The notes beneath the pieces were generated by a model, which was given only the letters and a program-made list of their open reading frames with translations, made no database searches and had not been told where the DNA came from. From Vibrio alginolyticus NBRC 15630 = ATCC 17749 (GTDB lineage Bacteria; Pseudomonadota; Gammaproteobacteria; Enterobacterales; Vibrionaceae), in assembly GCF_000354175.2 (NCBI RefSeq), contig NC_022349.1, positions 1,110,001 through 1,142,000 on the forward strand: DNA of 32,000 bases, read 5' to 3'. Position 1 is the stretch's first letter, and each line of letters opens with the position of its first letter. Shown here piece after piece: positions 6,937-31,428 of the stretch. Both the position numbers and the translations under genes were made by a program.

Positions 6937-8478
6937 CTAAGCTATATTCAATTCAGATTTCAACTCACGTTTCAAAATCTTTCCTGTCGCACTCATCGGG
7001 AGGTGTTCACGAATTTCGACATAACGAGGATATTTAAACGAGGCTAATTGCTCTTTACCCCACTTTTGTAATGAATCGGCGTCAATGTATTCTTTTGGTT
7101 TAAGTACAACGTAGGCTTTTATCTCTTCGCCATACTCTTCATTTGGAATCCCTATCACCGCGACCATTGAAACTGCAGGATGAGTCATGAAAACTTCTTC
7201 AATTTCTCTGGGATAAACATTAAATCCACCTCGAATGATCAGATCTTTCATTCTATCGACAATAAATAAATTACCTGAACTGTCAAAGCGGCCCACATCA
7301 CCAGTATGGAACCAACCATTTTGTAGCGCAGATTCAGTAACTTCTGGGCGATCAAGATATCCCTTCATAACATTATGACCACGCACAACAATCTCACCTT
7401 CTTCGCCTATCGGTAGTGCATTGCCTTCAATGTCGATAACTCTTACTTCGACGCCTTGAACCGGTTGACCTACCGAGCCTGGTATACGCTCCTGATCCAA
7501 ATGATTAAAACATGCAATAGGACTTGTCTCCGACAAGCCGTACCCTTCTAAGATCGGCACATTAAATGTTTCTTCAAAGGTTCGAAAGATTTCGGTTGGT
7601 AATGGCGCACCACCGCTTACTGCAACACGCAATGACGAGGTATCAAATTGATGCTGCACATGAAGCAGACCGATGTACATCGTTGGTACACCAGCAAATA
7701 TCGTCACCCTACGTTTTTCCACCAGCTCAAGAACATGTTTAGGCTCAAACCTAGGCACTAACACCAATGTTGCCCCGCCCAAAACACTAGCATTTAAGTG
7801 GACGGTTTGACCAAATGTATGAAATAAAGGCAAAGTTACTAAGTGAATATCATCGGCCTGGCTGCCCATAATGTTTTGTGCCACCAGAGCGTTCATTATG
7901 ATGTTCTGCTGAGTCAGCTCAGCGCCTTTTGGTAAGCCTGTCGTCCCTGATGTATACAAAATCACACAAGTATCATCCGCATTACGCGGTATATAATCCG
8001 GCAACGGTTGGACATCGGCTATAAACGCATTGAGAGTTATTACACCATTCCAATAGCTTTCATCTTGAGATTGAGTCAGTACGACTATGCCTTCGCATGT
8101 ATCGACTTGTTCAAAGGCTTTGACGCCCTCTTTTGCCATTGGCAGTTCTTTCGTCCCTTCAAAGCAGAAATAAAACTTCGCTTTTGAATCTTCTAAGTGA
8201 TACTTAATTTCTCGCGCTTTCAAAAGCACATTTAATGGGACTGCAACCGCGCCGGCTTTTTGTATTGCATAATAAACAAACGCGAAAAAAGGATTGTTTG
8301 GGCATGAAATCGCAACGCGGTCACCTGGCTTTACGCCTTTATTGATTAAAGACGCTGCGATCTTACCGGCGACCGCATCAAACTGCTCATAATTTATCTT
8401 TTCAGCGCCACATATCAACGCCGTTTTATCTGGTTTACTCGCAGCATTTCTTTGTAACGCAGCAGCAAGATTCATCAT
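6937..8478 (-). CDS. AMP-dependent synthetase / long-chain-fatty-acid--CoA ligase family
   Basis: It has the AMP-binding signature YTSGTTGLPKG, plus EGYGLSETS, TGD and a C-terminal GKILKR. The ORF opens at 8553, but the ATGATG at 8478-8473 is preceded by AAGAGG at good spacing and gives the N-terminus MMNLAAALQRNA. Confidence 0.85.
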   Translation of the reverse strand: MMNLAAALQRNAASKPDKTALICGAEKINYEQFDAVAGKIAASLINKGVKPGDRVAISCPNNPFFAFVYYAIQKAGAVAVPLNVLLKAREIKYHLEDSKAKFYFCFEGTKELPMAKEGVKAFEQVDTCEGIVVLTQSQDESYWNGVITLNAFIADVQPLPDYIPRNADDTCVILYTSGTTGLPKGAELTQQNIIMNALVAQNIMGSQADDIHLVTLPLFHTFGQTVHLNASVLGGATLVLVPRFEPKHVLELVEKRRVTIFAGVPTMYIGLLHVQHQFDTSSLRVAVSGGAPLPTEIFRTFEETFNVPILEGYGLSETSPIACFNHLDQERIPGSVGQPVQGVEVRVIDIEGNALPIGEEGEIVVRGHNVMKGYLDRPEVTESALQNGWFHTGDVGRFDSSGNLFIVDRMKDLIIRGGFNVYPREIEEVFMTHPAVSMVAVIGIPNEEYGEEIKAYVVLKPKEYIDADSLQKWGKEQLASFKYPRYVEIREHLPMSATGKILKRELKSELNIA

Positions 8479-9021
8479 AGTATCTTTACCTCTTACTTGT
8501 CTTTCTCGTCTAATCAGCTCAGGAGCATTAACTAAGCAAGTTATCCTTAACACTGGATCGTCAGCATTTGAGTCTCACCAGTCATTGTCATTTAACATTA
8601 TGTTTACAACGCAATCAGGACTAAGAATGTAAAGCAATTAACATTTCAGAAGGCAAATTAATAAAAGTGTGAGCTTGAAAGAGATGAATTGTTATAAATA
8701 TCAACCCAAGTCACTAAAAACTCTGACTGCAATAGCAAATACAAAAGCGGTTAAAATTAACAAAAAGAAAACAAATAAAGAAAAATAAACTTGAACAATC
8801 CTAAGCGCGACCCTTATAAGAAAAATCAATAGCAAACGTTTGCCATTGAACAAAACTTTATCGTTCGTCAATAAAATATCGATTAATCCATCAATAATAC
8901 CTTGCTGCATATTGCCAATTGTAAACGATAAGTGTAAAAAGCAAGGCGAGATAATTATCCGTAAATCCATTTATGGTTAGTGGGTAATTTTAGGATTTTA
9001 CATTTTATTAGCACAGAGGTT

Positions 9022-10281
9022 ATGGAAGTGTTAAAAGAAAAGAGTTTGCTAAACAACATTGGCGTACAAGTCGTAATCGCCATGATCGTGGGCACAGCCG
9101 TTGGTGCCATGATGGGTCATGATGCGACGGTGTTCGCTCCTTTAGGTGCTATCTTTATCAACTTAATCAAAATGTTGGTTATTCCTTTGGTCGCTGTAGC
9201 CTTGATTTCTGGCGCCGCTGGTCTTGGGAACAGCCAGTCAGCAGGTAAAGTTGGTATCGTCACTCTAGGTTATTTTGGTTTAACATCCGCCCTAGCCGTT
9301 GCGCTTGCACTATTTATGGGTGAAGTATTCCAACCAGGCATGGGTATCGACGTCTCTGGCGTTGAAGGCATGTTCTCAGCAGAATACGCTTCAAAAGGTG
9401 AACTACCTACTTTCTGGGCAACCATCACTGGTATGATCCCAACCAACGTTTTCCAATCACTAAATGAAGCAAACATCCTACAGATCCTCGTTTTCTGTAT
9501 GTTCTTTGGTATTGCGATTTCTAAGCAAGCAAAAGAGCGTCGTGAACCAATCATCAATGGTGTTAACTGCATCGTTGACGCAATGGTTTGGATGATCAAC
9601 AAAGTAATGATCATTGCACCTATCGGTGTATTTGGTCTGATGGCAGAAGCCGTCGGTACGTTCGGTTTTGGTGCGCTAATGGTGGTGTTTAAACTGTTCG
9701 TTGTTTACGTTGCCGCCATCCTAATCTTCGGTTTCGTTGTTTACCCAGCAATGGTGCATGTTTTCACGAAGACATCTGCGAAGAAATTCCTGTCTTCAAT
9801 GAAGAAACCGCAAGCAGTTGCGCTTTCAACAGCGTCTTCTATGGCAACACTGCCTGTTACAATGGACACCTGTGAAAAAGAGCTGGGCGTAAAAAATTCA
9901 ACTGCATCATTTGTTCTGCCTCTAGGCGCAACGATCAACATGTCAGGTAATGCGATTTACTATGGCTTGGTTGCTATCTTCTTTGCTCAACTGTTCAATA
10001 TCGATCTAGGCATGGGCGCTTACATTGCAATTATCGTAACGTCTACATTGGGTGCGGTTGGTCAAGCGGGTGTTCCTGGCCCTTCTTTCCTAGTGGTTGC
10101 CGTGCTTCTTGCCGCTGGCATTCCAATTGAAGGTCTACCGCTGCTATTCGCTCTTGACCGTATTTTCGATATGATTCGTACAGCACTGAACATCACAGGT
10201 GATGCTGCATGTGCAGTTATCGTTGATGCGCTAATTGAAGAAGAAACGGCAGAAGCTGAGCTAAAAAAGCAAGAAGCCTAA
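9022..10281 (+). CDS. Dicarboxylate/amino acid:cation symporter (DAACS family)
   Basis: It is a multi-pass hydrophobic protein with DAACS-like motifs (SSMATLPVT, GATINMSGNA, ALNITGDA). I prefer ATG 9022, preceded by AGAGG, over the GTG at 8980. Confidence 0.85.
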   Translation: MEVLKEKSLLNNIGVQVVIAMIVGTAVGAMMGHDATVFAPLGAIFINLIKMLVIPLVAVALISGAAGLGNSQSAGKVGIVTLGYFGLTSALAVALALFMGEVFQPGMGIDVSGVEGMFSAEYASKGELPTFWATITGMIPTNVFQSLNEANILQILVFCMFFGIAISKQAKERREPIINGVNCIVDAMVWMINKVMIIAPIGVFGLMAEAVGTFGFGALMVVFKLFVVYVAAILIFGFVVYPAMVHVFTKTSAKKFLSSMKKPQAVALSTASSMATLPVTMDTCEKELGVKNSTASFVLPLGATINMSGNAIYYGLVAIFFAQLFNIDLGMGAYIAIIVTSTLGAVGQAGVPGPSFLVVAVLLAAGIPIEGLPLLFALDRIFDMIRTALNITGDAACAVIVDALIEEETAEAELKKQEA

Positions 10282-10299
10282 CCCTTTCTTGAATAGACC

Positions 10300-10329
10300 A
10301 AAAACCGCTCATAATGAGCGGTTTTTTTG
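10300..10329 (+). terminator. Rho-independent terminator after the symporter
   Basis: ACCGCTC (10304-10310) pairs with GAGCGGT (10316-10322), followed by T7. An A-run upstream gives it bidirectional potential. Confidence 0.75.
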
Positions 10330-10437
10330 TCTTTTCTTGCATTACGTAACTATACAAATAGAAACCGATGGCATAAATTTTTCAAAATGATATAAACCAT
10401 TACAAAATATAACAAAACGTTAGAGCTAGGTTATATC

Positions 10438-11622
10438 ATGAGTCTTGAGCAATCTTTGGACTATCTCACCAAAACAAATTTGCCGATCGAATCAAAGCAG
10501 CAGGCCTTGGTTGACTCAGTTATTCTTACCCTAACGAAACAAAAACGAGATGCTCTTTTTCAACCGGTTGCTCTGTATCGAATAAAACTGCTTAAATCTC
10601 TCTTTCCTAAACACGCATCAAAAAGTCTTTCTGCACTATTTGAGTTAATGGATTATCGAGATTTAGTGCAACAGTATCCGACAGGTTTCTCCAAAGAGAT
10701 TCGTTTACTTGAACAACTTGCCGCAGATTGTTACCCGCATTGGATGGTTTTCTGGTGTCAATGCGAGATCGAAGCAATCAAGCAAAAATATCCTTCAAAC
10801 GAAGCTGCGATTCCTACTCCGCTTCCGTTTGACGACCACAGCTATACTAGCGTGTTAATTGAAGATATCGCAGATTGCGATCTTGAGGTAATGCTGCCAA
10901 ATCATGCAGCGTTAATGCCGATTTCCGAAGCGATCACACTGAGTAATCTTGAGCTTTTCGTCCAAACTGAACAATGGTTTGAAATCTTGCCTCTTTTATC
11001 ACTCTCGCAAAAAGGGCAGCACTTTGCCCTCTTGCTCAAATCGTCATCTTCACCAATCATGGTCTCCTCCGCTTTAGTGCAAAGCTGGCATCAACGAAAT
11101 AACTGGCTCAGTTACTCACCACAGTTTAGTAACGAACAATGGCAGTTTTGCTTTCCTAATCATGGGTATAGTGTTCTCAATCAACTGGGTATTTTGGAGT
11201 GTCGTGCTCTAACTCATGAGCACACTCTTATTGAGTTTGATGCTCAGTTTCAATCTCGTGTAAAGAACAGTGAAGCGGTTTGCGAAGTACTGCGTCTTAC
11301 GGTGGGAGGCAACATTCAACAAAAGCTGTATTTTTTGTATCTGGCGCAAAAAACTATGATGAGCGAGCTCTATAAAGCAGGCTATAAGCTCGGCTTTACC
11401 ATTATTGAGCAAGTGTTTATGTTAAATTTCTATCAATCTATTGATTTAAGTGCCTACTTTCACTCAGGATACCGCGACATTAACAGTGACGGTACCAAGA
11501 CATACCGCGGTTTCTGGAATTTAGGTATGATGGTTGAAGCATTTCAAGACATACAATTTCGCGACTACAAACATTGCGTACGAACAAAAAGAATGGATAA
11601 AAAGGTGAATGAGCATGCTTGA
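10438..11622 (+). CDS. luxM: LuxM/AinS-family acyl-homoserine-lactone synthase (candidate)
   Basis: 394 aa, the size of LuxM/VanM/OpaM. It sits immediately upstream of a LuxN-type kinase and overlaps it by 14 nt, which is the canonical luxMN arrangement. The call rests on synteny and size. I did not verify catalytic motifs. Confidence 0.65.
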   Translation: MSLEQSLDYLTKTNLPIESKQQALVDSVILTLTKQKRDALFQPVALYRIKLLKSLFPKHASKSLSALFELMDYRDLVQQYPTGFSKEIRLLEQLAADCYPHWMVFWCQCEIEAIKQKYPSNEAAIPTPLPFDDHSYTSVLIEDIADCDLEVMLPNHAALMPISEAITLSNLELFVQTEQWFEILPLLSLSQKGQHFALLLKSSSSPIMVSSALVQSWHQRNNWLSYSPQFSNEQWQFCFPNHGYSVLNQLGILECRALTHEHTLIEFDAQFQSRVKNSEAVCEVLRLTVGGNIQQKLYFLYLAQKTMMSELYKAGYKLGFTIIEQVFMLNFYQSIDLSAYFHSGYRDINSDGTKTYRGFWNLGMMVEAFQDIQFRDYKHCVRTKRMDKKVNEHA

Positions 11623-14155
11623 TGTTCATTTGCACGGTATCTTTTACCCAAAAGCATTGGCATTGTACGCGACTGTACTAATAGTATTCGCTTGGTTACT
11701 GTATTACTGCTATCGCCTAAAACAGAAGAGTGAATCAATCTTAGGCTCGCATCACGCGCCTTACATCGCTTATTCCAGCTGTATCATTGTTTGGATAAGC
11801 AGCAACGCCTATTTCCATACCGATTTATTGCCAGAATTAGGCTCTGTTGGTGGCATTTTTATGGCTAAGTTAGCGAACTTAGCGTCTTTTTTCGCCTTTG
11901 CGTTTGCATTCTATTTTTCTTGCCAGTTAACCGCAGATGTTAAAAAAACAGCGGTCAAAGTCTGGCAAAAAGTCGTCTTTGTCGCACTAGCAACGTATTC
12001 ACTGTACATCAACTTAGTGCCGAATCTTACTGTCGAAAATGTCACCATTAGTGGTCCAAGCCAGTTCGTCATTGAATTTGGCTCACATACCTCATATTTT
12101 TTCATTAGTTTGCTAGCTTTCGTGGTACTAACGCTGCTTAACTTGATTGCCATGCGCGCGAACAGCAGCAAGCTCACGCTAGCAAAAAGCAACTATATGA
12201 TAGCTGGCATTTTGGTATTCATGTTATCTACGGCAGTGATACACCTTGGAATGACGTATTTCCTTGGCGACTTCTCCCTAACTTGGTTACCACCAGCACT
12301 TTCAATCAGCGAAATGTTGTTTGTGGGCTATGCCCTACTTACCTCTCGCTTCTACAGCGCTAAATATCTCACGTACTTAACGGTAAGCGCGCTCTTAGTC
12401 TGCGCCATTTTTGTTCTGCCGCTAGGGGCGATATTTATTCCTATCTCTGAAGATAACCAATGGCTTGTTGCGGTACCTTTATGTGCGCTTATCGGTATCA
12501 CTTGGCACTTGCTTTTTAAGCGAGTCAGTCGTTACGCTTCGTATTTTATTTATGGGAAACGACACACTCCCGTTCAGCAAATCCTTGGGTTAGAGGAAGA
12601 GTTTAAACGCTCAATAGATGATGCTATGCATCAGTTGGCATCGTTACTTAACATACCAAACAACAAGCTGCAGCTAGTCACTAGCAATTACACAGAAACG
12701 TTTTACGAAGAGTACCTGCCGTCAAGCAAGTCAGTTCTCGTGCTAGATGAGTTGTCTGAAGAAATTGATTATGCCTCCTCTTCTAAAGGGTCGATGAGAA
12801 AGCTCTACGAGCGCATGCGCTCAAGCAATACTGCGCTCGTTATGCCTCTCTTCGGTCGTGGAAAGTCAGTTACTCACTTACTAATTTCTTCACATAAAAT
12901 AGATAATAAGCTGTTTTCTAATGAAGAAATCTCAGCTCTGCAAACGTTATTAGTTCGCATCCAGAGCACCATTGAAGCCGATAGAAAGGTACGCCAAAGC
13001 CGTGCGCTGGCTAACTCCATTGCACATGAAATGCGTAACCCTCTCGCTCAAGTACAATTACAATTTGAAGCTTTAAAACAGCATATAGAGTCAAACGCCT
13101 CACTGGATACGCTAAAAAGAGAAATTGATAAAGGTGAAGCCGCTATACAACGCGGTAGACAACTTATCGATATTATTTTACGAGAAGTTAGCGACAGTTC
13201 ACCAGAGCATGAGCCTTTAGCTCTCACTTCCATACATAAAGCCATCGACCAAGCAGTAAGCCGTTATGGTTTTGAAAACGATCAAATAATAGAGAGAATT
13301 AACCTGCCACAGGCACACGATTTTGTCGCGAAGTTAAATGAGACCCTGTTTAACTTTGTCATTTTCAATTTGATTCGTAACGCTATCTACTATTTTGATT
13401 CTTATCCCGACAGTCAAATTGAGATTCGTACCCAGACGGGGGCTTACGAAAACATTCTGATCTTCCGAGATAGTGGGCCAGGTATAGATAGCAGTATCTT
13501 ACACAAGATATTTGATGACTTTTTCTCGTATCAAAAAAGCGGAGGCAGTGGCTTAGGTTTGGGCTATTGCCAACGTGTTATGCGCTCCTTCGGAGGACGA
13601 ATAGAGTGCCAGTCTGAATTGAACGAGTTCACAGAATTCTACTTGTATTTCCCAGTCGTACCAAACGCACCAAAACCAGAGACATTAAGAGCACCGGACT
13701 TTGATAGCTGGAAAGCAACTGCATCACATTTTGAAAATCATTCAGCTCAACACGTACAAGTATCTAAAGATGCACCAACAGTGCTCATTGTTGATGACAA
13801 AGAGGTGCAACGCACCTTGGTACAGATGTATTTAAAAAGGCTGGGAGTCAACAGCTTACAAGCAAATAATGGAGCCTCTGCGGTAGAACTATTCCACTCT
13901 CATAAGATTGATCTCGTTCTTATGGATGTCCAAATGCCGGTAATGAATGGATTTGACGCAAGCCAACGGATTAAGCAAATCACATCCTCCGTTCCAATCA
14001 TTGCCTTATCTGGTGAGTCTGGAGCTAGAGAGTTGGAGCTAATTTCGAAACTCATGGATGACAGACTCGAAAAGCCCACCACGTTAAATGCACTTCAAGT
14101 CGTCATCCAAAGATGGTTACAGAACGAGAATTCTGCGCCTTCCAACACTTTTTAA
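11609..14155 (+). CDS. luxN: Hybrid sensor histidine kinase, LuxN-type AHL receptor
   Basis: 848 aa; V. harveyi LuxN is 849 aa as I recall. The N-terminal ~300 aa hold many hydrophobic helices. The H-box is SIAHEMRNPL with His at residue 473. The ATPase G-boxes are DSGPGI and GGSGLGLGYC. The receiver is LVLMDVQMP with Asp at residue 773. These positions are 2 residues off the H471/D771 reported for LuxN. Confidence 0.85.
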   Translation: MSMLDVHLHGIFYPKALALYATVLIVFAWLLYYCYRLKQKSESILGSHHAPYIAYSSCIIVWISSNAYFHTDLLPELGSVGGIFMAKLANLASFFAFAFAFYFSCQLTADVKKTAVKVWQKVVFVALATYSLYINLVPNLTVENVTISGPSQFVIEFGSHTSYFFISLLAFVVLTLLNLIAMRANSSKLTLAKSNYMIAGILVFMLSTAVIHLGMTYFLGDFSLTWLPPALSISEMLFVGYALLTSRFYSAKYLTYLTVSALLVCAIFVLPLGAIFIPISEDNQWLVAVPLCALIGITWHLLFKRVSRYASYFIYGKRHTPVQQILGLEEEFKRSIDDAMHQLASLLNIPNNKLQLVTSNYTETFYEEYLPSSKSVLVLDELSEEIDYASSSKGSMRKLYERMRSSNTALVMPLFGRGKSVTHLLISSHKIDNKLFSNEEISALQTLLVRIQSTIEADRKVRQSRALANSIAHEMRNPLAQVQLQFEALKQHIESNASLDTLKREIDKGEAAIQRGRQLIDIILREVSDSSPEHEPLALTSIHKAIDQAVSRYGFENDQIIERINLPQAHDFVAKLNETLFNFVIFNLIRNAIYYFDSYPDSQIEIRTQTGAYENILIFRDSGPGIDSSILHKIFDDFFSYQKSGGSGLGLGYCQRVMRSFGGRIECQSELNEFTEFYLYFPVVPNAPKPETLRAPDFDSWKATASHFENHSAQHVQVSKDAPTVLIVDDKEVQRTLVQMYLKRLGVNSLQANNGASAVELFHSHKIDLVLMDVQMPVMNGFDASQRIKQITSSVPIIALSGESGARELELISKLMDDRLEKPTTLNALQVVIQRWLQNENSAPSNTF

Positions 14156-24363: not shown

Positions 24364-26697
24364 ATGACCAATAACATCACTCCTATTCATGAGTACAAAA
24401 AATACTGGGCAGAGTGTTTTGGTACGGCACCTTTCTTGCCGACCAGTCGCAAAGAAATGGATGCCCTAGGATGGGATAGCTGTGACATTATCATTGTAAC
24501 CGGTGACGCTTATGTGGATCACCCAAGCTTTGGTATGGCTATCATTGGCCGCCTGCTAGAAGCACAAGGTTTCCGTGTCGGTATCATTGCTCAACCAGAA
24601 TGGCAAAATAAAGATGCGTTCATGCAACTTGGTAAGCCAAATCTGTTCTTCGGGATCACTGCGGGTAACATGGACTCCATGATCAACCGTTACACCGCGG
24701 ATAAAAAGCTTCGTCACGATGACGCGTACACACCGAATAACGAAGGTGGTAAACGCCCAGACCGAGCAACGTTGGTTTACTCTCAACGTTGTCGTGAGGC
24801 ATACAAAGAAGTACCTATTGTTTTAGGTGGTATCGAAGCTAGCCTACGCCGTGTTGCGCACTACGATTACTGGTCAGATAAAGTTCGCCGTTCTGTACTG
24901 TTTGATGCAAAAGCAGACATCCTACTTTTTGGTAACGCAGAGCGCGCACTTGTCGAAGTAGCACATCGCATCGCAAACGGCGAAGGCATCAGCACCATGA
25001 CCAATATTCGTGGTACTGCCGTGAACTTGCCAGCGGCGCCAGAAGGCTACACGGTTATTGATTCTTCTCGCATTGAAAAACCTCGTAAAGAAGCGTTCGT
25101 ACCAAAGAACCCATACGAAGTAGAAACTCAGTGTGAAACTAAAAAAGATGAGCCTGTTGCACAACCAATCACGATTCGCCCATCACGCCACGATGCTGCG
25201 ACGACTGCGGTCCGTTTACCTTCGTTTGAAAAGCTAAGAAACGATCGTATTCTTTATGCGCATGCAAGCCGTGTATTGCATCTAGAAACGAACCCGTACT
25301 CTGGTCGAGCGTTACTTCAAAGCCATGGTGATCGTGAACTTTGGGTAAACCAAGCTCCAATTCCATTGACGACCGAAGAGATGGACTTTGTGTTTGGCCT
25401 GCCTTACGCGCGTGTCCCTCACCCTATGTACGGGAAAGCAAAAATTCCTGCGTACGACATGATCAAGACGTCTGTAAACATCATGCGTGGTTGCTTTGGT
25501 GGCTGTTCTTTCTGTTCGATTACCGAGCATGAAGGTCGAATCATTCAAAACCGTTCGAAAGAGTCTATCATCAACGAGATTGAAGAAATTCGCGACAAAG
25601 TTCCAGGCTTTACCGGCACAATTTCCGATCTTGGTGGCCCGACTGCAAACATGTACCGCCTGGGCTGTAAAGATCCAAAAGCGGAAGCGAACTGTCGTCG
25701 TCCTTCTTGTGTATTCCCGGGCATCTGTAACAAGCTAAACACAGACCACAAACACACGATCGATTTATACCGCGAAGCGCGTAAAGTTGAAGGCGTGAAG
25801 AAAGTGATGGTTGCATCTGGCGTACGTTACGACCTTGCGATTGAATCACCAGAATACGTGAAAGAGCTCGTGACTCACCACGTAGGCGGTTACTTGAAGA
25901 TTGCACCGGAACATACAGAGAAAGGTCCTCTTGATCTGATGATGAAGCCAGGCATGGGTACGTACGATCGCTTTAAAGAGATGTTCGAGAAATACAGTGC
26001 AGAAGCAGGCAAGAAGCAGTACTTAATCCCTTATTTTATCTCTGCGCACCCAGGCACAGAAGACGAAGACATGCTGAACCTTGCTCTGTGGCTGAAAAAG
26101 AACAACTTCGAATGTGATCAAGTACAAAACTTCTACCCTTCGCCAATGTGTAACGCAACGTCGATGTACTACTCAGAGACAAACCCTCTGAAACGCGTGA
26201 AGTACAAAAAACGTGAAGATGTACCTGTAGCAAAAGGTGAACGTCAACGTCGCCTGCATAAAGCGCTGTTGCGTTATCACGATCCAGCAAACTGGCCAAT
26301 GATCCGTGAAGCCCTAATCAGTATGGGTAAAAAACATTTGATTGGTGACAAACAAGGCTGTCTCGTTCCTGCAGAAGACATTGAAGCACAAACACCTGCG
26401 CAACGTCGTAAATCTGGTCGTCATGGGGCAAACCGCTTTGCAACCAAACATACCAAAAACCAACCAGGCTTCGGTGGTCATTTGAACAAACGTTCTGAAG
26501 GCGGTTCAAAAGATGGTAAACCATCTGGCAACCGTAACGGTTCGGGTAAAGCTACAGGTGGTCAACGCCCTGCAAGCAACGGCCAACGTCCTAGCGGCAA
26601 CGGTGCAAACCGCCCGGCAGGTAGCAAGCCGCAAGGCCAAGGTCGCCCACAAGGACAAAGCAAACCAGCTGGTCAACGTAAACCAAAGCGTCGCTAA
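24364..26697 (+). CDS. ygiQ: YgiQ-family (UPF0313) radical SAM protein with low-complexity basic tail
   Basis: 777 aa. It has the CX3CX2C cluster motif CFGGCSFC and an N-terminal region typical of YgiQ ([22 protein letters not shown]). The C-terminal ~85 aa are rich in G/Q/R/P/N/K. Confidence 0.9.
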
Positions 26698-26720
26698 CTC
26701 TTTAGCACTTAAATACTAGA

Positions 26721-26758
26721 AAGGGCTCCAGAGGTAACTCTGGAGCCCTTTTGTTTTG
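26721..26758 (+). terminator. Strong rho-independent terminator after ygiQ
   Basis: A perfect 13-bp stem: AAGGGCTCCAGAG (26721-26733) pairs with CTCTGGAGCCCTT (26738-26750) around the loop GTAA, followed by TTGTTTTG. Confidence 0.85.
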
Positions 26759-26959
26759 TCGGCTCATTGAGGCATCACTCACAACTAAAACTTTGATTCA
26801 ATCAATACAAAAAATGGTAAACACCAACCAACTTATTGGAAAAACAAACAATTATTTGATTGACGCAAAACCATAAAAATCTAACTCATTGATTTTTAAT
26901 TGCTTTATTTTGGTGCGATATTTGCGTAATAGAATAAAACTCTTAAACATGGGCTAACG

Positions 26960-29900
26960 ATGAATAATCCACTTCCCCCAAAAACTTCTATGTTCTGGTA
27001 TGACAACAGCTATACCTATGAGGAGGCCGTTCAGGCATTTGAAAGCGATGGTACACTGAAATCGCTGAATATCGTTCCAACCACGGAATCCGATGATCTT
27101 GCTGGCTCACCCCCAGAGCGCAGTATGTTTTGGGAGGGAGAAACAAAAAAAATCGATCCGCCACCGCCGTCTGAACCAGAGCCTCTCAATTTAAAAACTG
27201 AGAAAGAAGCAACGGAAGCATCACCTGCGCACTTTATCCCAGTCCGCTATGCCATCGATCAGCTAGAAACAGAAGAGACACAACCTTTTGGTTTGCCTGA
27301 AGAATGGAAAGGGCAAGGCCCAGCCAAACTCAATACCGTTGGTTACACCCTGCGTCAACTGCGCGACGGTTGGCTGTATGTCTATGATGCAATCAACAAA
27401 AGCTTAGACGAATACGAAATCAAAGGAACGCAATTCACGCTCTATAAGTTGGGAGAATCAGAAAGCCCAAAATCAGAGCAGCGTGGGACACCACAAGATG
27501 CAAAGCCCTTCCTTACTTACGTCAACGGAAGCGTACTATCGATTTGCTTCTCTGAGCACCGGTGGACATGGCACACGTTCATGCGCGTACTTAACAATCC
27601 GAGTAATCATATCGATCGCATGCAAACCATTGTTCTGTCCTCAAACGAGAATCAGCACAACATTGCACCAATAGATAAGTTAACCCAAGTCGCTGATATT
27701 GAATCTTCTGCCGTCGATGATGGTCGCTTTGCGGATTCTGGCATCGCCACCAAAGCAGATGAAGATGGTTCTGTCTTTAAACCTGTCGCAGTCGAAAGCG
27801 ATTTAACCTCTGCGATTCCAGAAGAAGAATCAGGCTACTTCGTCGCGATAAAAGATTACGCCGCAGACATTCAAGATATGTCACTGCATTTTGTTGGTGC
27901 CGCAAGCCCTTACCGCCTTTTCACTGACCAGTTTTCAAACCAGTGGAACTTGATGCAGACCGCCATGCAACTGTGTATGTTTGGTGCAAGTGACGAGATA
28001 GACATGCCAGCTAGCGTTAAGCGTAACGGCGAAGAGCTGTCGTTTTATACCGACATGGCTGACTATTATGACTCCTCTCACCAACTTGATTTGGCAGAGC
28101 AGAACAAAAGCTCAGTTCAGTCCGGCTATCCTGCTAAATTTTCCGCTGGAGCGATTGAATCACACCAACATACCCAAAGTGACATTGCTAAAGCGATACA
28201 GGACAAATATCGAATTTCTGCGAGCCGTTTTGGTAAATACGAACAATGGATAGCGACTGAACGCTGGCGTCAGCAGCTCAACTGGAAGCAAATGCTGAGC
28301 GAGATGCAAGAGCTGTCAGAACAAAAAGAAACCATGCTAGCCCAAGTGGTTTCGGTCAAACGCGACTTTATCGCAGTAATGGAGTCCTTAACGCCGCATC
28401 ATCTCGAAAGAACCTTCGACCTATACAGCGAAGACACGCAGTACAGCTTGTATCAACTACACAAGCAAGCGGTTGAGTCATTTACTTTGGTGATACAAGA
28501 AGAAGACCGCCAATGGGCTGAAAGCCAATGGGAGAAACCAACCAGTTTACTTGCTCTCTATGCCTCTGGGTTTAGTCGTAGTTTATTTAAAGTGATGGAG
28601 AAGAATATTACAGAGGCGCTTGATGAACAGTCGATCGTCTCAGGAAATCCTGATCCTGATAATCAGTTGATGGACCAGATATCTGATACCAGCAACCGCG
28701 TGAATATGTACTCTAAGATCATGGACTTTGTTTCCAATCCAAACACTGCGGAAACAGCCTTTCTCAAAGATATCGCCAAAGGTTTCCAAGAGCTGGATAT
28801 TATTTTTAAATCTGCAATAGGTGCGCTTGCAAAAGGCGTTGTAGAGTTTGGTGTTAGCATGACCTCACAAGTATCAATTTCGCTGATGCCTGTTTTCGCT
28901 AAACCTCTGAACCGTCATAGCTATTATTTATTTGCCGTTATTGCAGAACATATGGCACACAACATGCCCGTAACAATAAAAGAAGGTTACGCTCGCGATT
29001 TTAAAAAATGGAAAACACGCGTAAATGATTATCTGATTAAGCTCGAAAAAAACGATGCAATCATTGCTGACTTCCAGAAAAATAACCGCAAAGCTGACTC
29101 TAAATACACAACAGCTTTAAAAAATAAAAAGACTATTAAGAAGGCTCTCGCTGTAGCTACATTGGAGTACCCGCAGTACATTGAGTTACCTGATGATCTA
29201 CCTCAAAGAACCATCGAGCTTAGAACGCGGATCGTGATGAATAAGCTCAATGATTTGAATAAACTGTTCGAGAATGCCGGTGGTCTAGGCTTTCTGGCAT
29301 TAATATTTAACTGCATCGCGCTTGGTGATGCCATGAGCAGTATTCAAGACACGGGGTTAATGTCCTCAGATGAATTTTTGGATATCCAGCAAAAGTTATT
29401 TTACACAGTCAACGCTTGGACAGGTGTTCGTACAGGTAAGTTATGGGAGAAAGTGAAGGGTGAACCTAGGTTAAGGTCACATTCATATAATGTCTTAAAA
29501 AAGTTAGTGAATAGAAACGAAGATACCTTTAAAAACTTAAACCTTGATGACCTAAAGGTATTCAATAAATGGCTAGCAATCACAGGGGCTTTAGGTGCGT
29601 TAGCTTCGGGTATTGAGGCTTACCGTTCTTGGCAGAGTGCTGACAAAGTTTATGGTCAAGAAAAATATCTGCATGTAGCAAATTCCCTAGTATTAACAGC
29701 AATGTCAGCTGTCGGTATATTCCAAGTATACGGAGGGTTAACTGGACAATTTGCATTAAACTTATCCTTTGGCGGGCCTATAACGGCCGGCCTGGTTATT
29801 CTCACGATTGCATACCTAGCCATCAATTATAAGTTGAATAAACTGAAACAAGATGATTTCCAAAAATGGTTAGATAAACTGCCTTGGGGTTATCACCCGA

Positions 29901-30457
29901 CTCGCACTCAGTGGAGCCAATCTTCGAGCTTACCCGAAAGAGAGAAGCATAATTCAGCATTGGTTCAGCAAGCGCTGTTTGACTTACAATCTATTATTCA
30001 ACAGCCTACGGTATACCATCAACCTATTGAAAAAGTACAAGCTTACCCAGGTTACACACATCGTGAGTTAATCGGTTTGGAAGTGCATATTCAACTGCCA
30101 AGGCGTGCTGCAACGAATGGTATTACGTTGAGAACTAACAGCAAGGCAACAGAAGATGATTTGATGTCAGGCTCGTGGCATCAAAACGCAGATTTAGTCA
30201 CGCTACAAACTCAAGATCAAGCGAGCAAAGAATCACTGGTGTACAAAGTAACCTTGCCAATTGAAGAAGCAGATCATTACCTTGCAATGCAAGTAGCTTA
30301 CGATGTGGAAGATGATGCCCCTGCTAAGCGTGAGTATTGGTTCCAAAACGGCATAAAACAGAGTGCAACTTATGGCATTATTTCAGACAATATCAAACAA
30401 GACATAATTAAAAAAACACTCACCCCCGCAGTTGGCACACTAGGTTTTCAGGAGTAA
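26960..30457 (+). CDS. Candidate T6SS MIX-type effector with a C-terminal membrane-inserting (pore-forming-type) region
   Basis: 1165 aa. All three MIX motif elements are present in order in the N-terminal region: FIPVR, LRDGWLYVY, ICFSEHRWT. There are four hydrophobic helices at aa ~774-957 and an unassigned C-terminal ~208 aa. I spotted no enzymatic signatures. The start is fixed by an in-frame TAG at 26930-26932. The SD is weak. Confidence 0.75.
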   Translation: MNNPLPPKTSMFWYDNSYTYEEAVQAFESDGTLKSLNIVPTTESDDLAGSPPERSMFWEGETKKIDPPPPSEPEPLNLKTEKEATEASPAHFIPVRYAIDQLETEETQPFGLPEEWKGQGPAKLNTVGYTLRQLRDGWLYVYDAINKSLDEYEIKGTQFTLYKLGESESPKSEQRGTPQDAKPFLTYVNGSVLSICFSEHRWTWHTFMRVLNNPSNHIDRMQTIVLSSNENQHNIAPIDKLTQVADIESSAVDDGRFADSGIATKADEDGSVFKPVAVESDLTSAIPEEESGYFVAIKDYAADIQDMSLHFVGAASPYRLFTDQFSNQWNLMQTAMQLCMFGASDEIDMPASVKRNGEELSFYTDMADYYDSSHQLDLAEQNKSSVQSGYPAKFSAGAIESHQHTQSDIAKAIQDKYRISASRFGKYEQWIATERWRQQLNWKQMLSEMQELSEQKETMLAQVVSVKRDFIAVMESLTPHHLERTFDLYSEDTQYSLYQLHKQAVESFTLVIQEEDRQWAESQWEKPTSLLALYASGFSRSLFKVMEKNITEALDEQSIVSGNPDPDNQLMDQISDTSNRVNMYSKIMDFVSNPNTAETAFLKDIAKGFQELDIIFKSAIGALAKGVVEFGVSMTSQVSISLMPVFAKPLNRHSYYLFAVIAEHMAHNMPVTIKEGYARDFKKWKTRVNDYLIKLEKNDAIIADFQKNNRKADSKYTTALKNKKTIKKALAVATLEYPQYIELPDDLPQRTIELRTRIVMNKLNDLNKLFENAGGLGFLALIFNCIALGDAMSSIQDTGLMSSDEFLDIQQKLFYTVNAWTGVRTGKLWEKVKGEPRLRSHSYNVLKKLVNRNEDTFKNLNLDDLKVFNKWLAITGALGALASGIEAYRSWQSADKVYGQEKYLHVANSLVLTAMSAVGIFQVYGGLTGQFALNLSFGGPITAGLVILTIAYLAINYKLNKLKQDDFQKWLDKLPWGYHPTRTQWSQSSSLPEREKHNSALVQQALFDLQSIIQQPTVYHQPIEKVQAYPGYTHRELIGLEVHIQLPRRAATNGITLRTNSKATEDDLMSGSWHQNADLVTLQTQDQASKESLVYKVTLPIEEADHYLAMQVAYDVEDDAPAKREYWFQNGIKQSATYGIISDNIKQDIIKKTLTPAVGTLGFQE
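27230..27568 (+). other. MIX (marker for type VI effectors) motif region within the effector ORF
   Basis: shhPhR is F92-R96 FIPVR (27233-27247). hRxGhhYhh is L134-Y142 LRDGWLYVY (27359-27385). hhF/YSxxxWS/T is I195-T203 ICFSEHRWT (27542-27568). Confidence 0.7.
29279..29830 (+). other. Cluster of four predicted transmembrane/hydrophobic helices in the effector C-terminal region
   Basis: The helices are aa 774-795 GGLGFLALIFNCIALGDAMSSI, 871-888 WLAITGALGALASGIEAY, 906-927 VANSLVLTAMSAVGIFQVYGGL and 939-957 GPITAGLVILTIAYLAINY. They are glycine/alanine-rich helices of the kind seen in pore-forming toxins. Confidence 0.6.
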
Positions 30458-30460
30458 CCC

Positions 30461-31405
30461 TTGGCATATTCACCGTTTTATATCACCCCAGAAGAATTGG
30501 CGGTTTATCAAGAAGCACAAGAGCAAGAGATTCTCAAAGGGGACAATTTAACAACATGGCATAAGTATGATGTAGAAGAGCCATTTCGCTACCATTACAA
30601 GTTAACGGCTTTGCCATTTATGAGCTTCTTATTTGTAATTGTATTTTTGACACACTCAAGTGATACGCTTGTCGTGACCTTTTTTGGCCTTATCTTGTCA
30701 GTAATGATGGCCGGGATCTTTTATCTTACGATTGGCCTCGACTATCGCTATGACTATATCTTTTCTGACAAAGGCTTTGTGATGAAGAAGCGTCGCAACA
30801 TGCCTAAGTGGGCGAATACCGCCACACAAGCCGTTGGCTGGATCGGTGCGGTAGTTTGCGTTTTGATGGTAGCGGTAGTTGGCCCGATGGCGTTAGCTGG
30901 AGCGGGCGCTCTTATTTTATTCTCATTTGGTATGTTAAAACGCAAGCCCGATGAACCAACAGAAGTGAGAATTGGAGAGCGTGAAGATTGGTTGTTTGCC
31001 GACTACAACAAAAAGCGCAAAGTGATCCAGTTCTACTTTAAGCAGGATAAGTGTGAATATATCGATATGGAACACAACACTATTGTCCGTTCACATAGTA
31101 GATCTGATTGCTACGTATTTTTCAAAACTGAAACGGACTTAGAATCGATGGTAAATCAGTTAGCTACGGAATATAAGCTGGATTGTACAGAGGTAGATGA
31201 CCACAAAAAGCTGTTTGAATCGAAGCCAGAATCAAGGCTCTTTAGTATTCCGGTTTGTAGTAGAGAATATCAAACCGAAGAGGTATTTGATTTAAGGGCG
31301 TCAAATGCCCCACTTCCTGAGCGTGAATACCTTTACAACGGCAAGTGGCAAACGGAATCTGAGATTGAAAAATCAAAATCTGAACTAACGGCAGCCAAGG
31401 TATAA
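30461..31405 (+). CDS. Candidate cognate immunity protein (four-TM inner-membrane protein with a ~150-aa soluble C-terminal domain)
   Basis: The TTG start lies 6 nt after AGGAG (30450-54), and that SD sits inside the last codons of the effector gene, whose stop is 30455-57. TM segments are at aa ~48-65, 70-92, 124-141 and 143-159. The position immediately 3' of a toxin gene is typical for immunity genes. The ORF call is solid; the function is inferred. Confidence 0.6.
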   Translation: MAYSPFYITPEELAVYQEAQEQEILKGDNLTTWHKYDVEEPFRYHYKLTALPFMSFLFVIVFLTHSSDTLVVTFFGLILSVMMAGIFYLTIGLDYRYDYIFSDKGFVMKKRRNMPKWANTATQAVGWIGAVVCVLMVAVVGPMALAGAGALILFSFGMLKRKPDEPTEVRIGEREDWLFADYNKKRKVIQFYFKQDKCEYIDMEHNTIVRSHSRSDCYVFFKTETDLESMVNQLATEYKLDCTEVDDHKKLFESKPESRLFSIPVCSREYQTEEVFDLRASNAPLPEREYLYNGKWQTESEIEKSKSELTAAKV

Positions 31406-31428
31406 ACCTTGGCTTGTTTACCTTTTTA
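31394..31428 (+). terminator. Putative terminator of the effector-immunity unit
   Basis: GCCAAGG (31394-31400) pairs with CCTTGGC (31407-31413). The stop codon TAA lies in the loop. It is followed by the T-rich TTGTTTACCTTTTTA. The stem is short, so this is a moderate call. Confidence 0.5.

Follow-up and report, generated by a model that had tools for sequence, protein, structure and literature searches.

Among the closest described systems are VasX with its immunity protein TsiV2 in V. cholerae, Tke5-Tap3-Tki5 in P. putida (PDB 9r8g) and Ptx2-Tap6 in P. aeruginosa (PDB 9qpv), all of the BTH_I2691/VasX family. The helical region of Tke5 by itself suffices for killing, and both Tke5 and Ptx2 carry a beta-rich domain equivalent to the one discussed below (PMC12909789). 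VasX is a MIX-effector of clan IV (PMC6267618), a class defined by Salomon et al. (2014) through a tripartite motif with its elements in order; the published pattern is shhPhR / hRxGhhYhh / hhF/YSxxxWS/T (quoted in PMC12909789). In V. alginolyticus 12G01, Va16152 and Va16147 form a T6SS1-secreted antibacterial effector-immunity pair (Salomon et al. 2015, PLoS Pathog, PMC4549250). Va16152, which is MIX IV, mediates T6SS1-dependent inhibition of kin without the immunity protein, and was counted as an orphan within the 'core' repertoire of T6SS1 effectors (PMC4549250).

The window, by which we mean the whole 32-kb stretch that was analysed, contains an orphan cassette of two genes, effector and immunity, between ygiQ and gtrA. 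With a probability of roughly 0.92, its longer gene encodes a MIX clan IV cargo effector of the VasX/BTH_I2691 family, lying in an orphan effector-immunity cassette on chromosome 1 and acting by the mechanism of loading, killing and immunity that is proposed below. The gene and its parts are:

26960..30457, + strand: effector gene, 1165 aa, read as a MIX IV, VasX/BTH_I2691-family pore-forming T6SS toxin
26960..27229, + strand: N-terminal extension, aa 1-90, a twin motif followed by a Pro/Glu-rich linker
27233..27643, + strand: MIX region as delimited by Pfam VasX_N, aa 92-228, with all three motifs inside
27857..29998, + strand: central alpha-helical region, aa 300-1013, predicted pore-forming module (AF2; Foldseek match to Ptx2)
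29570..29824, + strand: predicted transmembrane helices, aa 871-955; no other block varies as much between alleles
30008..30352, + strand: C-terminal beta-rich domain, aa 1017-1131, with strands from AF2, polymorphic between alleles

The exact protein has already been annotated and published. An identical protein stands in NCBI as AVF70164.1, "T6SS effector BTH_I2691 family protein", and Dataset S2 of Dar, Salomon and Bosis (2018, Mar Drugs, PMC6267618) has an entry for V. alginolyticus ATCC 17749, WP_031777260.1, at NC_022349.1 1136960-1140457, 1165 aa, with MIX4 at aa 91-213 and in 'Cluster 2'. Length and strand agree, the coordinates are those of the window plus 1,110,000, and no difference was found; from this match and the 100% identity of the NBRC 15630 protein (P0065), the entry is taken to be the very same gene. 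The assignment to clan IV comes from the same dataset, which gives MIX4 for WP_031777260.1 and its homologues. Its C-terminus was placed among those with predicted transmembrane helices and treated as pore-forming, with three such helices predicted for the effector and another three for the immunity protein downstream (PMC6267618). With a close relative already tested as well, the finding is correct and ordinary, and it carries little weight as a discovery because a published, annotated T6SS MIX IV effector was rediscovered from raw sequence; the case does show that the motifs were read accurately here.

Family membership is clear from two curated profiles, both of which score far over threshold. 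Pfam PF20249 (VasX_N), which describes the MIX-containing region, matches aa 92-228 with 80.2 bits against a cut-off of 27, and NCBIfam NF041559 (BTH_I2691_fam) matches aa 91-1002 with 357.6 bits against a cut-off of 150, a full-length match that spans model positions 12-858 of 858. A profile of the family also found the solved toxins Ptx2 (9qpv, E 1.3e-38) and Tke5 (9r8g, E 5e-16), and its alignments to both bring the three motifs into register. Like VasX, Tke5 and Ptx2, the protein combines a MIX domain, a helical region with transmembrane helices and a beta-rich C-terminus, an architecture seen in the AF2 model (pLDDT 77), Foldseek, hydropathy and the published transmembrane prediction. The predicted alpha/beta MIX domain reaches about aa 297 (nt 27850), with pLDDT of about 85-94 in the MIX region, and the only significant Foldseek match of the model against the PDB is Ptx2 (E 1.5e-14), which differs in having just about 13% identity to the effector in that alignment. 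The transmembrane prediction published for WP_031777260.1 is o871-891i903-925o931-955i (PMC6267618), and hydropathy peaks at aa 932-959. The C-terminal domain gave weak immunoglobulin-like matches in Foldseek and is a putative membrane- or receptor-binding module. MIX lies N-terminal to the polymorphic C-terminal toxin region: it is 90-100% conserved in Harveyi-clade homologues, and identity drops to 41-53% at aa 861-965 and 1011-1165.

The effector gene is followed immediately by that for its immunity protein, and the cassette is framed by two hairpins:

26719..26752, + strand: intrinsic-terminator-like hairpin, 15-bp stem with 8 GC pairs, then a T run
30461..31405, + strand: immunity gene, 314 aa, with a TTG start 4 nt past the effector stop
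31393..31414, + strand: terminator-like hairpin at the 3' end of the immunity gene, the right cassette boundary

The first hairpin lies 3' of the upstream radical-SAM gene (ygiQ type), marks the left cassette boundary and is conserved in 12G01. The gene at 30461..31405 is the cognate immunity gene and encodes an inner-membrane protein probably of the TsiV2 family, the orthologue of Va16147; the immunity proteins of the VasX/TsiV2, Tke5 and Ptx2 systems are membrane proteins of the TsiV2 Pfam family. The exact 314-aa protein stands in NCBI as a hypothetical protein, and its hydrophobic segments are at aa 45-95 and 120-159. A local Pfam and NCBIfam scan of this protein gave no match, and membership in TsiV2 comes from annotations of a newer Pfam release, in which PF27447.1 (TsiV2) is precomputed on immunity homologues, namely the 12G01 orthologue and 100%-identical ones. 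The genes of VasX, Tke5 and Ptx2 adjoin vgrG and a DUF4123 adaptor gene, whereas the effector here is an orphan without a T6SS neighbour; such vgrG/DUF4123 neighbours are typical of the family and not obligatory. A Pfam search of all non-nested open reading frames of at least 100 aa found no T6SS structural gene, VgrG, PAAR or DUF4123 adaptor in the window, whose sequence therefore does not name a loading partner. The base composition of the cassette is unremarkable and thus gives no sign of recent foreign origin.

The orthologue in 12G01 (P0136, EAS75181.1, CH902590.1 51252-54761) allows a direct comparison with tested proteins. Gene order is the same at the two loci (EAL, ygiQ, effector, immunity, gtrA); V. 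alginolyticus is not among the five loci from the scan of genome contigs, which served for synteny and not as a census. An attempt to identify Va16152 by mass failed, with 132,356 Da in the proteomics table for V12G01_16152 against 132,095 Da computed for P0136 and with the 1169-aa representatives unmatched; the link between Va16152 and P0136 rests on EAS75181.1, assembly GCA_000153505.1, coordinates and length. The 12G01 effector has 1169 aa as against 1165 aa here and is 80% identical overall. The two are essentially identical over aa 1-236, with the N-terminal extension and the MIX IV domain at 100%, and a 314-aa immunity gene lies immediately downstream in both. The divergence falls in blocks, at aa 346-420 (49% identity), in the transmembrane block at aa 861-965 (53%) and in the C-terminal domain (41%, compared with 80% identity of this domain to V. 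zhanjiangensis), and the immunity proteins are 71% identical, with their divergence in the transmembrane region (55%). The transmembrane and C-terminal segments appear to have been shuffled together with the immunity gene.

These blocks raise the question of how much of the published work carries over to ATCC 17749. The allele here might be functionally distinct, using another T6SS or adaptor or having another pore or immunity specificity, such that the data on Va16152 do not transfer. The low identity of the transmembrane block, the C-terminal domain and the transmembrane region of the immunity protein is what speaks for this, along with the character of the family as a mosaic of exchanged blocks. 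We nonetheless think it unlikely, since the N-terminal extension and MIX, the expected loading determinants, do not differ at all between the strains, the upstream promoter region shows 98% identity, and the loci are syntenic. Another immunity specificity is likely, yet it would amount to allelic variation within one mechanism, and the alleles of the two strains probably belong to different immunity groups. The activity and immunity specificity of the ATCC 17749 allele are accordingly extrapolations from Va16152. With the same loading domains joined to different transmembrane and C-terminal blocks and different immunity proteins, the pair of alleles is a natural system for mapping the determinants of immunity specificity in VasX-type toxins.

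Others have shown that secretion of the 12G01 orthologue depends on T6SS1, that it acts against bacteria and that the immunity protein protects from it; for the clan IV effector here, loading through an adaptor and VgrG, action from the periplasm and depolarisation are inferred by homology to Tke5 and Ptx2 (PMC12909789, bioRxiv 10.1101/2025.04.30.651342). The closest homologues are found in T6SS-bearing vibrios, and for ATCC 17749 itself Dataset S4 of Dar et al. (2018, PMC6267618) lists 9 homologues of T6SS1 components and 10 of T6SS2 components. Together with the profiles and the secreted orthologue, this supports the proposal, made in a preliminary description of the sequence, that the MIX motifs mark a T6SS effector. 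Its action is likely to proceed as follows. Effector and immunity genes would share one transcript, bounded by the terminators of 26719-26752 and 31393-31414. At about aa 89-297, the alpha/beta MIX domain would pack R96, R135, G137, Y140 and W202 against the helical body; by analogy with Tke5-Tap3 and Ptx2-Tap6, it would offer the surface through which a DUF4123-type adaptor loads the toxin onto a VgrG spike of T6SS1. Once the toxin has been fired into an adjacent bacterium, the helical region, which spans aa 300-1013 and includes the hydrophobic helices of aa 871-955, would enter the inner membrane from the periplasm, with membrane binding perhaps aided by the beta-rich C-terminus (aa 1017-1131), and ion-selective pores would then collapse the membrane potential. 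The downstream TsiV2-type membrane protein would shield the producer and its kin.

It is very improbable that the main target is instead eukaryotic, that is, grazers or host cells. The idea draws on VasX, which was first found via amoeba killing, and on the ability of pore formers to act on many membranes. VasX is described as required for amoeba toxicity (PMC6267618). Against this, the effector is followed by a tightly coupled immunity gene, the feature by which published work recognises MIX-effectors as antibacterial, the orthologue gives T6SS1-dependent inhibition of immunity-less kin (PMC4549250), and Dar et al. counted both MIX-effectors of ATCC 17749 as antibacterial (PMC6267618). A dual bacterial and eukaryotic role is possible.

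The motifs from which the MIX effector was originally recognised were found exactly at the residues and in the order reported. The in-frame translation of 27230-27568 runs from HFIPVR to ICFSEHRWT (aa 91-203 of the 1165-aa open reading frame at 26960-30457, + strand), with FIPVR at aa 92-96 (nt 27233-27247), LRDGWLYVY at aa 134-142 (nt 27359-27385) and ICFSEHRWT at aa 195-203 (nt 27542-27568). The preliminary description called all three verbatim; this is accurate at every position of the central and C-terminal elements, and the first agrees at five of six positions, with His91 at the 's' position. It also placed the motifs at the N-terminus, which holds loosely, as a 90-residue extension precedes them and they are not at the extreme end. 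The gaps between the motifs are 37 and 52 residues, close to the 38 and 59 of the solved MIX domain of Tke5 (PMC12909789). The composition of the protein predicts 0.11, 0.0009 and 0.003 chance matches to motifs 1-3 in 1165 aa and about 1e-9 ordered triples per protein, and none of 20,000 shuffles produced an ordered triple, in agreement with the earlier view that the trio is unlikely to arise by chance. When all six frames of the window are searched, motifs 2 and 3 prove unique, and the five-residue first element has 14 other matches. R96, Y97, R132, D136, G137 and Y140 are invariant in 57 family members, down to 17% identity. A chance resemblance in a protein that is neither MIX nor T6SS, which could be argued from the short and degenerate nature of every motif and the recurrence of the first element, runs against the expected and shuffled frequencies and is already refuted by two independent curated HMMs well over cut-off, by the invariance of motif residues among distant relatives and by the match of both sequence and fold to solved MIX toxins.

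The effector departs from VasX, Tke5 and Ptx2 in its 90-aa N-terminal extension with twin PPxxSxxW motifs; Tke5 has merely 19 residues before its first MIX motif, too few for such an extension (PMC12909789), and the distant relatives P0304, P0310 and P0311 are without it. The extension is conserved across all Harveyi-clade homologues, and neither Pfam nor NCBIfam profiles match aa 1-90. Its twin motif consists of PPKTSMFW (aa 6-13) and PPERSMFW (aa 51-58), and more generally of two PPxxS[MV][FYM]W motifs on either side of a short helix, at a spacing of exactly 45 residues; AF2 gives pLDDT 65-84 for aa 1-38 and below 50 for aa 39-84. A RIX domain, the arginine-rich, helical N-terminal motif of about 55 aa described by Kanarek et al. 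(2023), was considered and rejected on composition, as aa 1-90 have only one arginine and are rich in Pro, Glu and Ser. The module is common to the N-termini of several VasX-like subfamilies, and it recurs in the Tle1-like lipases P0388 and P0393 (752-754 aa, without a VasX_N match) at 54% identity over 61 aa (pairwise E 2e-16). A homologue search with the N-terminal module of the Tle1-like proteins alone gave no matches, and the known spread of the module is that within 137 family representatives. Tentatively, and with considerable doubt, the first 65 or so residues upstream of MIX may be regarded as a separate and so far unmodelled T6SS-associated module in Vibrionaceae. Such a module could act alongside MIX or on its own, as a second signal for loading or for recognition by an adaptor; a MIX V domain may lie deeper within the Tle1-like proteins. 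The module, which these lipases share, is an experimental lead.

Two candidate regulatory elements precede the effector gene:

26829..26841, + strand: conserved upstream box CAACTTATTGGAA, containing a CCAA-N4-TTGG inverted repeat, candidate regulator site
26911..26925, + strand: sigma-54-like -24/-12 element TGGTGCGATATTTGC, 34 nt upstream of the ATG, no more than a lead

The box is present in 5/5 aligned upstream regions, including that of V. zhanjiangensis with different upstream genes, and is unique in the window (0.05 matches expected). The pattern TGGYRC-N5-TTGC has TGGTGCGATATTTGC as its single match in the window, which with 0.31 expected by chance is not significant, and a looser sigma-54 pattern (N8 spacing) occurs in the window at the chance rate (7 versus 5.5 expected). 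The search upstream of the effector gave no sigma-70-like promoter. 12G01, V. harveyi and V. diabolicus conserve TGGTGCGATATTTGC, and in V. zhanjiangensis the start codon is preceded at a similar distance by TGGCCTAAAACTTGC. The sigma-54-like promoter and the conserved box may account for the co-regulation of an orphan effector with T6SS1.

The three MIX elements reported in the preliminary description are encoded at 27230-27568, in frame within a single long open reading frame on the plus strand (26960..30457, 1165 aa), and translation of the window places the three peptides at exactly the residues originally given:

27233-27247, plus strand: FIPVR, aa 92-96, first MIX element
27359-27385, plus strand: LRDGWLYVY, aa 134-142, central MIX element
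27542-27568, plus strand: ICFSEHRWT, aa 195-203, third MIX element

Measured against the published pattern (shhPhR, hRxGhhYhh and hhF/YSxxxWS/T, as quoted in PMC12909789), the claim of a verbatim match holds for the second and third elements at all positions; the first matches at 5/6, with His91 at the "small" position. From the composition of the protein itself, 0.11, 0.0009 and 0.003 matches to elements 1, 2 and 3 are expected per 1165 aa. About 1e-9 ordered triples are expected per protein, and none of 20,000 shuffles contained one, in agreement with the earlier argument against chance. The two longer motifs have no second occurrence in any of the window's six frames. The motif observation is therefore real and non-random. 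The gaps between the elements are 37 and 52 residues, compared to 38 and 59 in the solved MIX domain of Tke5 from P. putida, whose elements are PILPVR (20-25), LRPGYVYVF (64-72) and IGYSPHLWT (132-140).

The interpretation of this region as the MIX domain of a T6SS effector is supported by two curated profiles and by matches in sequence and fold to solved relatives. The profile check proposed earlier gave 80.2 bits for Pfam PF20249 (VasX toxin N-terminal region) at aa 92-228, well over the cut-off of 27, and NCBIfam NF041559 ("T6SS effector BTH_I2691 family protein") matched aa 91-1002 with 357.6 bits (cut-off 150). Among 1.84 billion cluster representatives, 137 relatives reached E <= 1e-3, and 57 of these, with identities down to 17%, entered a conservation alignment. 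R96, Y97, R132, D136, G137 and Y140 do not vary among these 57 relatives, and conservation is 90% or higher at P94, V95, Q133, L134, R135 and W138; this makes MIX elements 1 and 2 the most conserved part of the whole family. The profile of this alignment matches Ptx2 of P. aeruginosa (PDB 9qpv, E 1.3e-38) and PDB 9r8g (E 5e-16), a 996-aa "Toxin VasX N-terminal region domain-containing protein" whose quoted residues are those of Tke5, with the three motifs in register in both. An AlphaFold2 model built from the same alignment (mean pLDDT 77, pTM 0.63) predicts the following parts:

aa 1-38: short helical N-terminus
aa 39-84: disordered linker
aa 89-297: alpha/beta domain (pLDDT about 85-94)
aa 300-1013: long helical region
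aa 1017-1131: beta-rich C-terminal domain

This modelled three-part organisation is that reported for Tke5 and Ptx2, and Ptx2 was the sole significant Foldseek match of the model in the PDB (E 1.5e-14). Hydropathy places hydrophobic helices at about aa 773-795 and 932-959; the published transmembrane (TM) prediction covers aa 871-955 (Dar, Salomon & Bosis 2018, Dataset S2, PMC6267618).

The effector and its MIX class are already known. The exact protein is named [quoted passage not shown] in NCBI (e.g. AVF70164.1) and "Toxin VasX N-terminal region domain-containing protein" of V. alginolyticus in UniRef. In Dataset S2 it is listed for V. alginolyticus NBRC 15630 = ATCC 17749 as WP_031777260.1, 1165 aa, on the plus strand of NC_022349.1 at 1136960-1140457 (the window coordinates plus 1,110,000, which would place the window at NC_022349.1:1110001-1142000), and classed as "MIX4" at aa 91-213, Cluster 2. 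The same dataset predicts three TM helices in WP_031777260.1 and three in the downstream protein, and C-termini with predicted TM helices are treated as pore-forming in that study (PMC6267618). For ATCC 17749, Dataset S4 counts two MIX-effectors as antibacterial and records component homologues of two systems, 9 of T6SS1 type and 10 of T6SS2 type (PMC6267618). What this leaves as openings for new work is only the specificity of alleles and immunity, the N-terminal module and the regulation of the orphan cassette.

Functional evidence comes from the orthologue in strain 12G01, Va16152 (EAS75181.1 / WP_005376758.1, CH902590.1 51252-54761, 1169 aa). Its length agrees with that of V12G01_16152 in the 2015 proteomics table; the mass there is 132,356 Da, compared to 132,095 Da computed from the sequence (261 Da apart). 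In Salomon et al. 2015 (PMC4549250), Va16152 was enriched in T6SS1+ supernatants and was assigned to MIX IV, its pore-forming C-terminus being described as colicin-like. A delta-va16152-47 strain was inhibited by the wild type in a manner that needs hcp1 and the effector, and was rescued by plasmid-expressed Va16147 (PMC4549250). The gene order in 12G01 (EAL, ygiQ, effector, immunity, gtrA) is that of the window, and the NBRC 15630 homologues "in the same synteny" were already noted in that work (PMC4549250). Secretion, antibacterial effect and immunity have been demonstrated for the 12G01 orthologue.

The effector lies in a two-gene unit bounded by terminator-like hairpins:

24364-26697: radical-SAM gene of the ygiQ type (Pfam Radical_SAM_N and DUF3362), upstream of the effector
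26719-26752: strong terminator-like hairpin after the radical-SAM gene
26829-26841: conserved box CAACTTATTGGAA, about 70 nt upstream of TGGTGCGATATTTGC
26911-26925: sigma-54-like -24/-12 element TGGTGCGATATTTGC, matching in spacing, 34 nt before the ATG
26960-27229, plus strand: N-terminal extension, aa 1-90, ahead of MIX
30461-31405, plus strand: 314-aa immunity reading frame, TTG start 4 nt past the effector stop
31393-31414: second terminator-like hairpin, at the end of the unit
beyond this hairpin: convergent gtrA-like gene

The position of the TTG start fits translational coupling between the toxin and immunity genes. Two segments of the 314-aa protein are hydrophobic (aa 45-95 and 120-159), and it matched nothing in the local Pfam and NCBIfam copies; homologues, some 100% identical, have a precomputed assignment to PF27447 ("TsiV2"), the family of the VasX immunity protein. 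Pfam scans of the window found neither T6SS structural genes nor VgrG, PAAR or a DUF4123 adaptor; the cassette, of unremarkable base composition, is an orphan. Conservation of TGGTGCGATATTTGC extends to 12G01, V. harveyi and V. diabolicus, V. zhanjiangensis carries TGGCCTAAAACTTGC about as far from its start codon, and CAACTTATTGGAA is kept in 5/5 upstream regions, one of them with different upstream genes. The sigma-54-like pattern is not statistically significant across 32 kb, and neither candidate element is statistically compelling alone.

No Pfam or NCBIfam model matches the N-terminal extension, and a database search with this module alone returned no matches. It carries a twin motif with a spacing of exactly 45 residues: PPKTSMFW (aa 6-13) and PPERSMFW (aa 51-58). 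The motif recurs with equal spacing in several VasX-like subfamilies and in P0388 and P0393, proteins of 752-754 aa with a Tle1-like lipase domain that match aa 1-69 only; more distant VasX relatives lack it. A reading of the extension as a RIX domain was rejected, as aa 1-90 are not arginine-rich. RefSeq and most records start at Met1 (26960, 1165 aa), and the NBRC 15630 record (P0065) starts at Met11 (26990, 1155 aa); cross-species conservation of aa 1-10, a stretch that contains the first PP of the motif, favours Met1. In the representative genome of V. diabolicus, tblastn gives two overlapping effector pieces in different frames (7001-7195 and 7146-10520 of locus L005), near codons 50-65, which points to a frameshift, whether as a pseudogene or through an assembly error.

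By homology with Tke5-Tap3 and Ptx2-Tap6, the MIX domain would act as both scaffold and docking surface, and conserved Arg, Gly, Tyr and Trp residues within it would pack against the toxin body. A DUF4123 adaptor would bind this domain and pass the toxin to a VgrG spike, the beta-rich C-terminus may aid membrane binding, and the TsiV2-type protein would neutralise the toxin in the producer. For the window effector the steps observed here are those at the sequence level alone; adaptor loading and depolarisation we infer from the analogy.

The N-terminal extension and MIX domain show no difference from Va16152 (100% identity) and the promoter region is 98% identical, whereas identity falls to 49% at aa 346-420, 53% in the TM block (aa 861-965) and 41% in the C-terminal domain. 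V. zhanjiangensis lies further away than 12G01 in the N-terminal half (61-69% identity) and nearer in the TM block (76%) and the C-terminal domain (80%). Among 120 Harveyi-clade homologues the variable blocks are aa 351-400, 551-750, 801-950 and 1001-1165. The immunity protein is 71% identical to that of 12G01 overall and 55% in its TM region, a divergence that parallels that of the effector TM block and C-terminal domain. This pattern looks like an exchange of toxin blocks between alleles, as expected of a polymorphic toxin, the candidate segments among the compared loci (L001, 12G01; L004; L006, V. zhanjiangensis) being:

29540-30457: candidate exchanged block in the effector
30590-30955: TM region of the immunity protein, diverging in parallel

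Such exchange hints at distinct immunity groups in V. alginolyticus but is no proof of them. In V. zhanjiangensis (L006 10484-13327) the effector is followed by three tandem TsiV2-like immunity paralogues, and several Vibrio genomes have at least two TsiV2-like genes per contig, which form orphan immunity arrays; one copy is present in the window. Elsewhere the window encodes trp biosynthesis functions, a crp-like regulator, metE/metR, an EAL-PAS-CBS protein, a T2SS pilotin and, about 13 kb ahead of the effector (10438-14155), a quorum-sensing pair comprising a luxM-type AHL synthase (Pfam AHL_synthase) followed by an 848-aa luxN-type hybrid sensor kinase.
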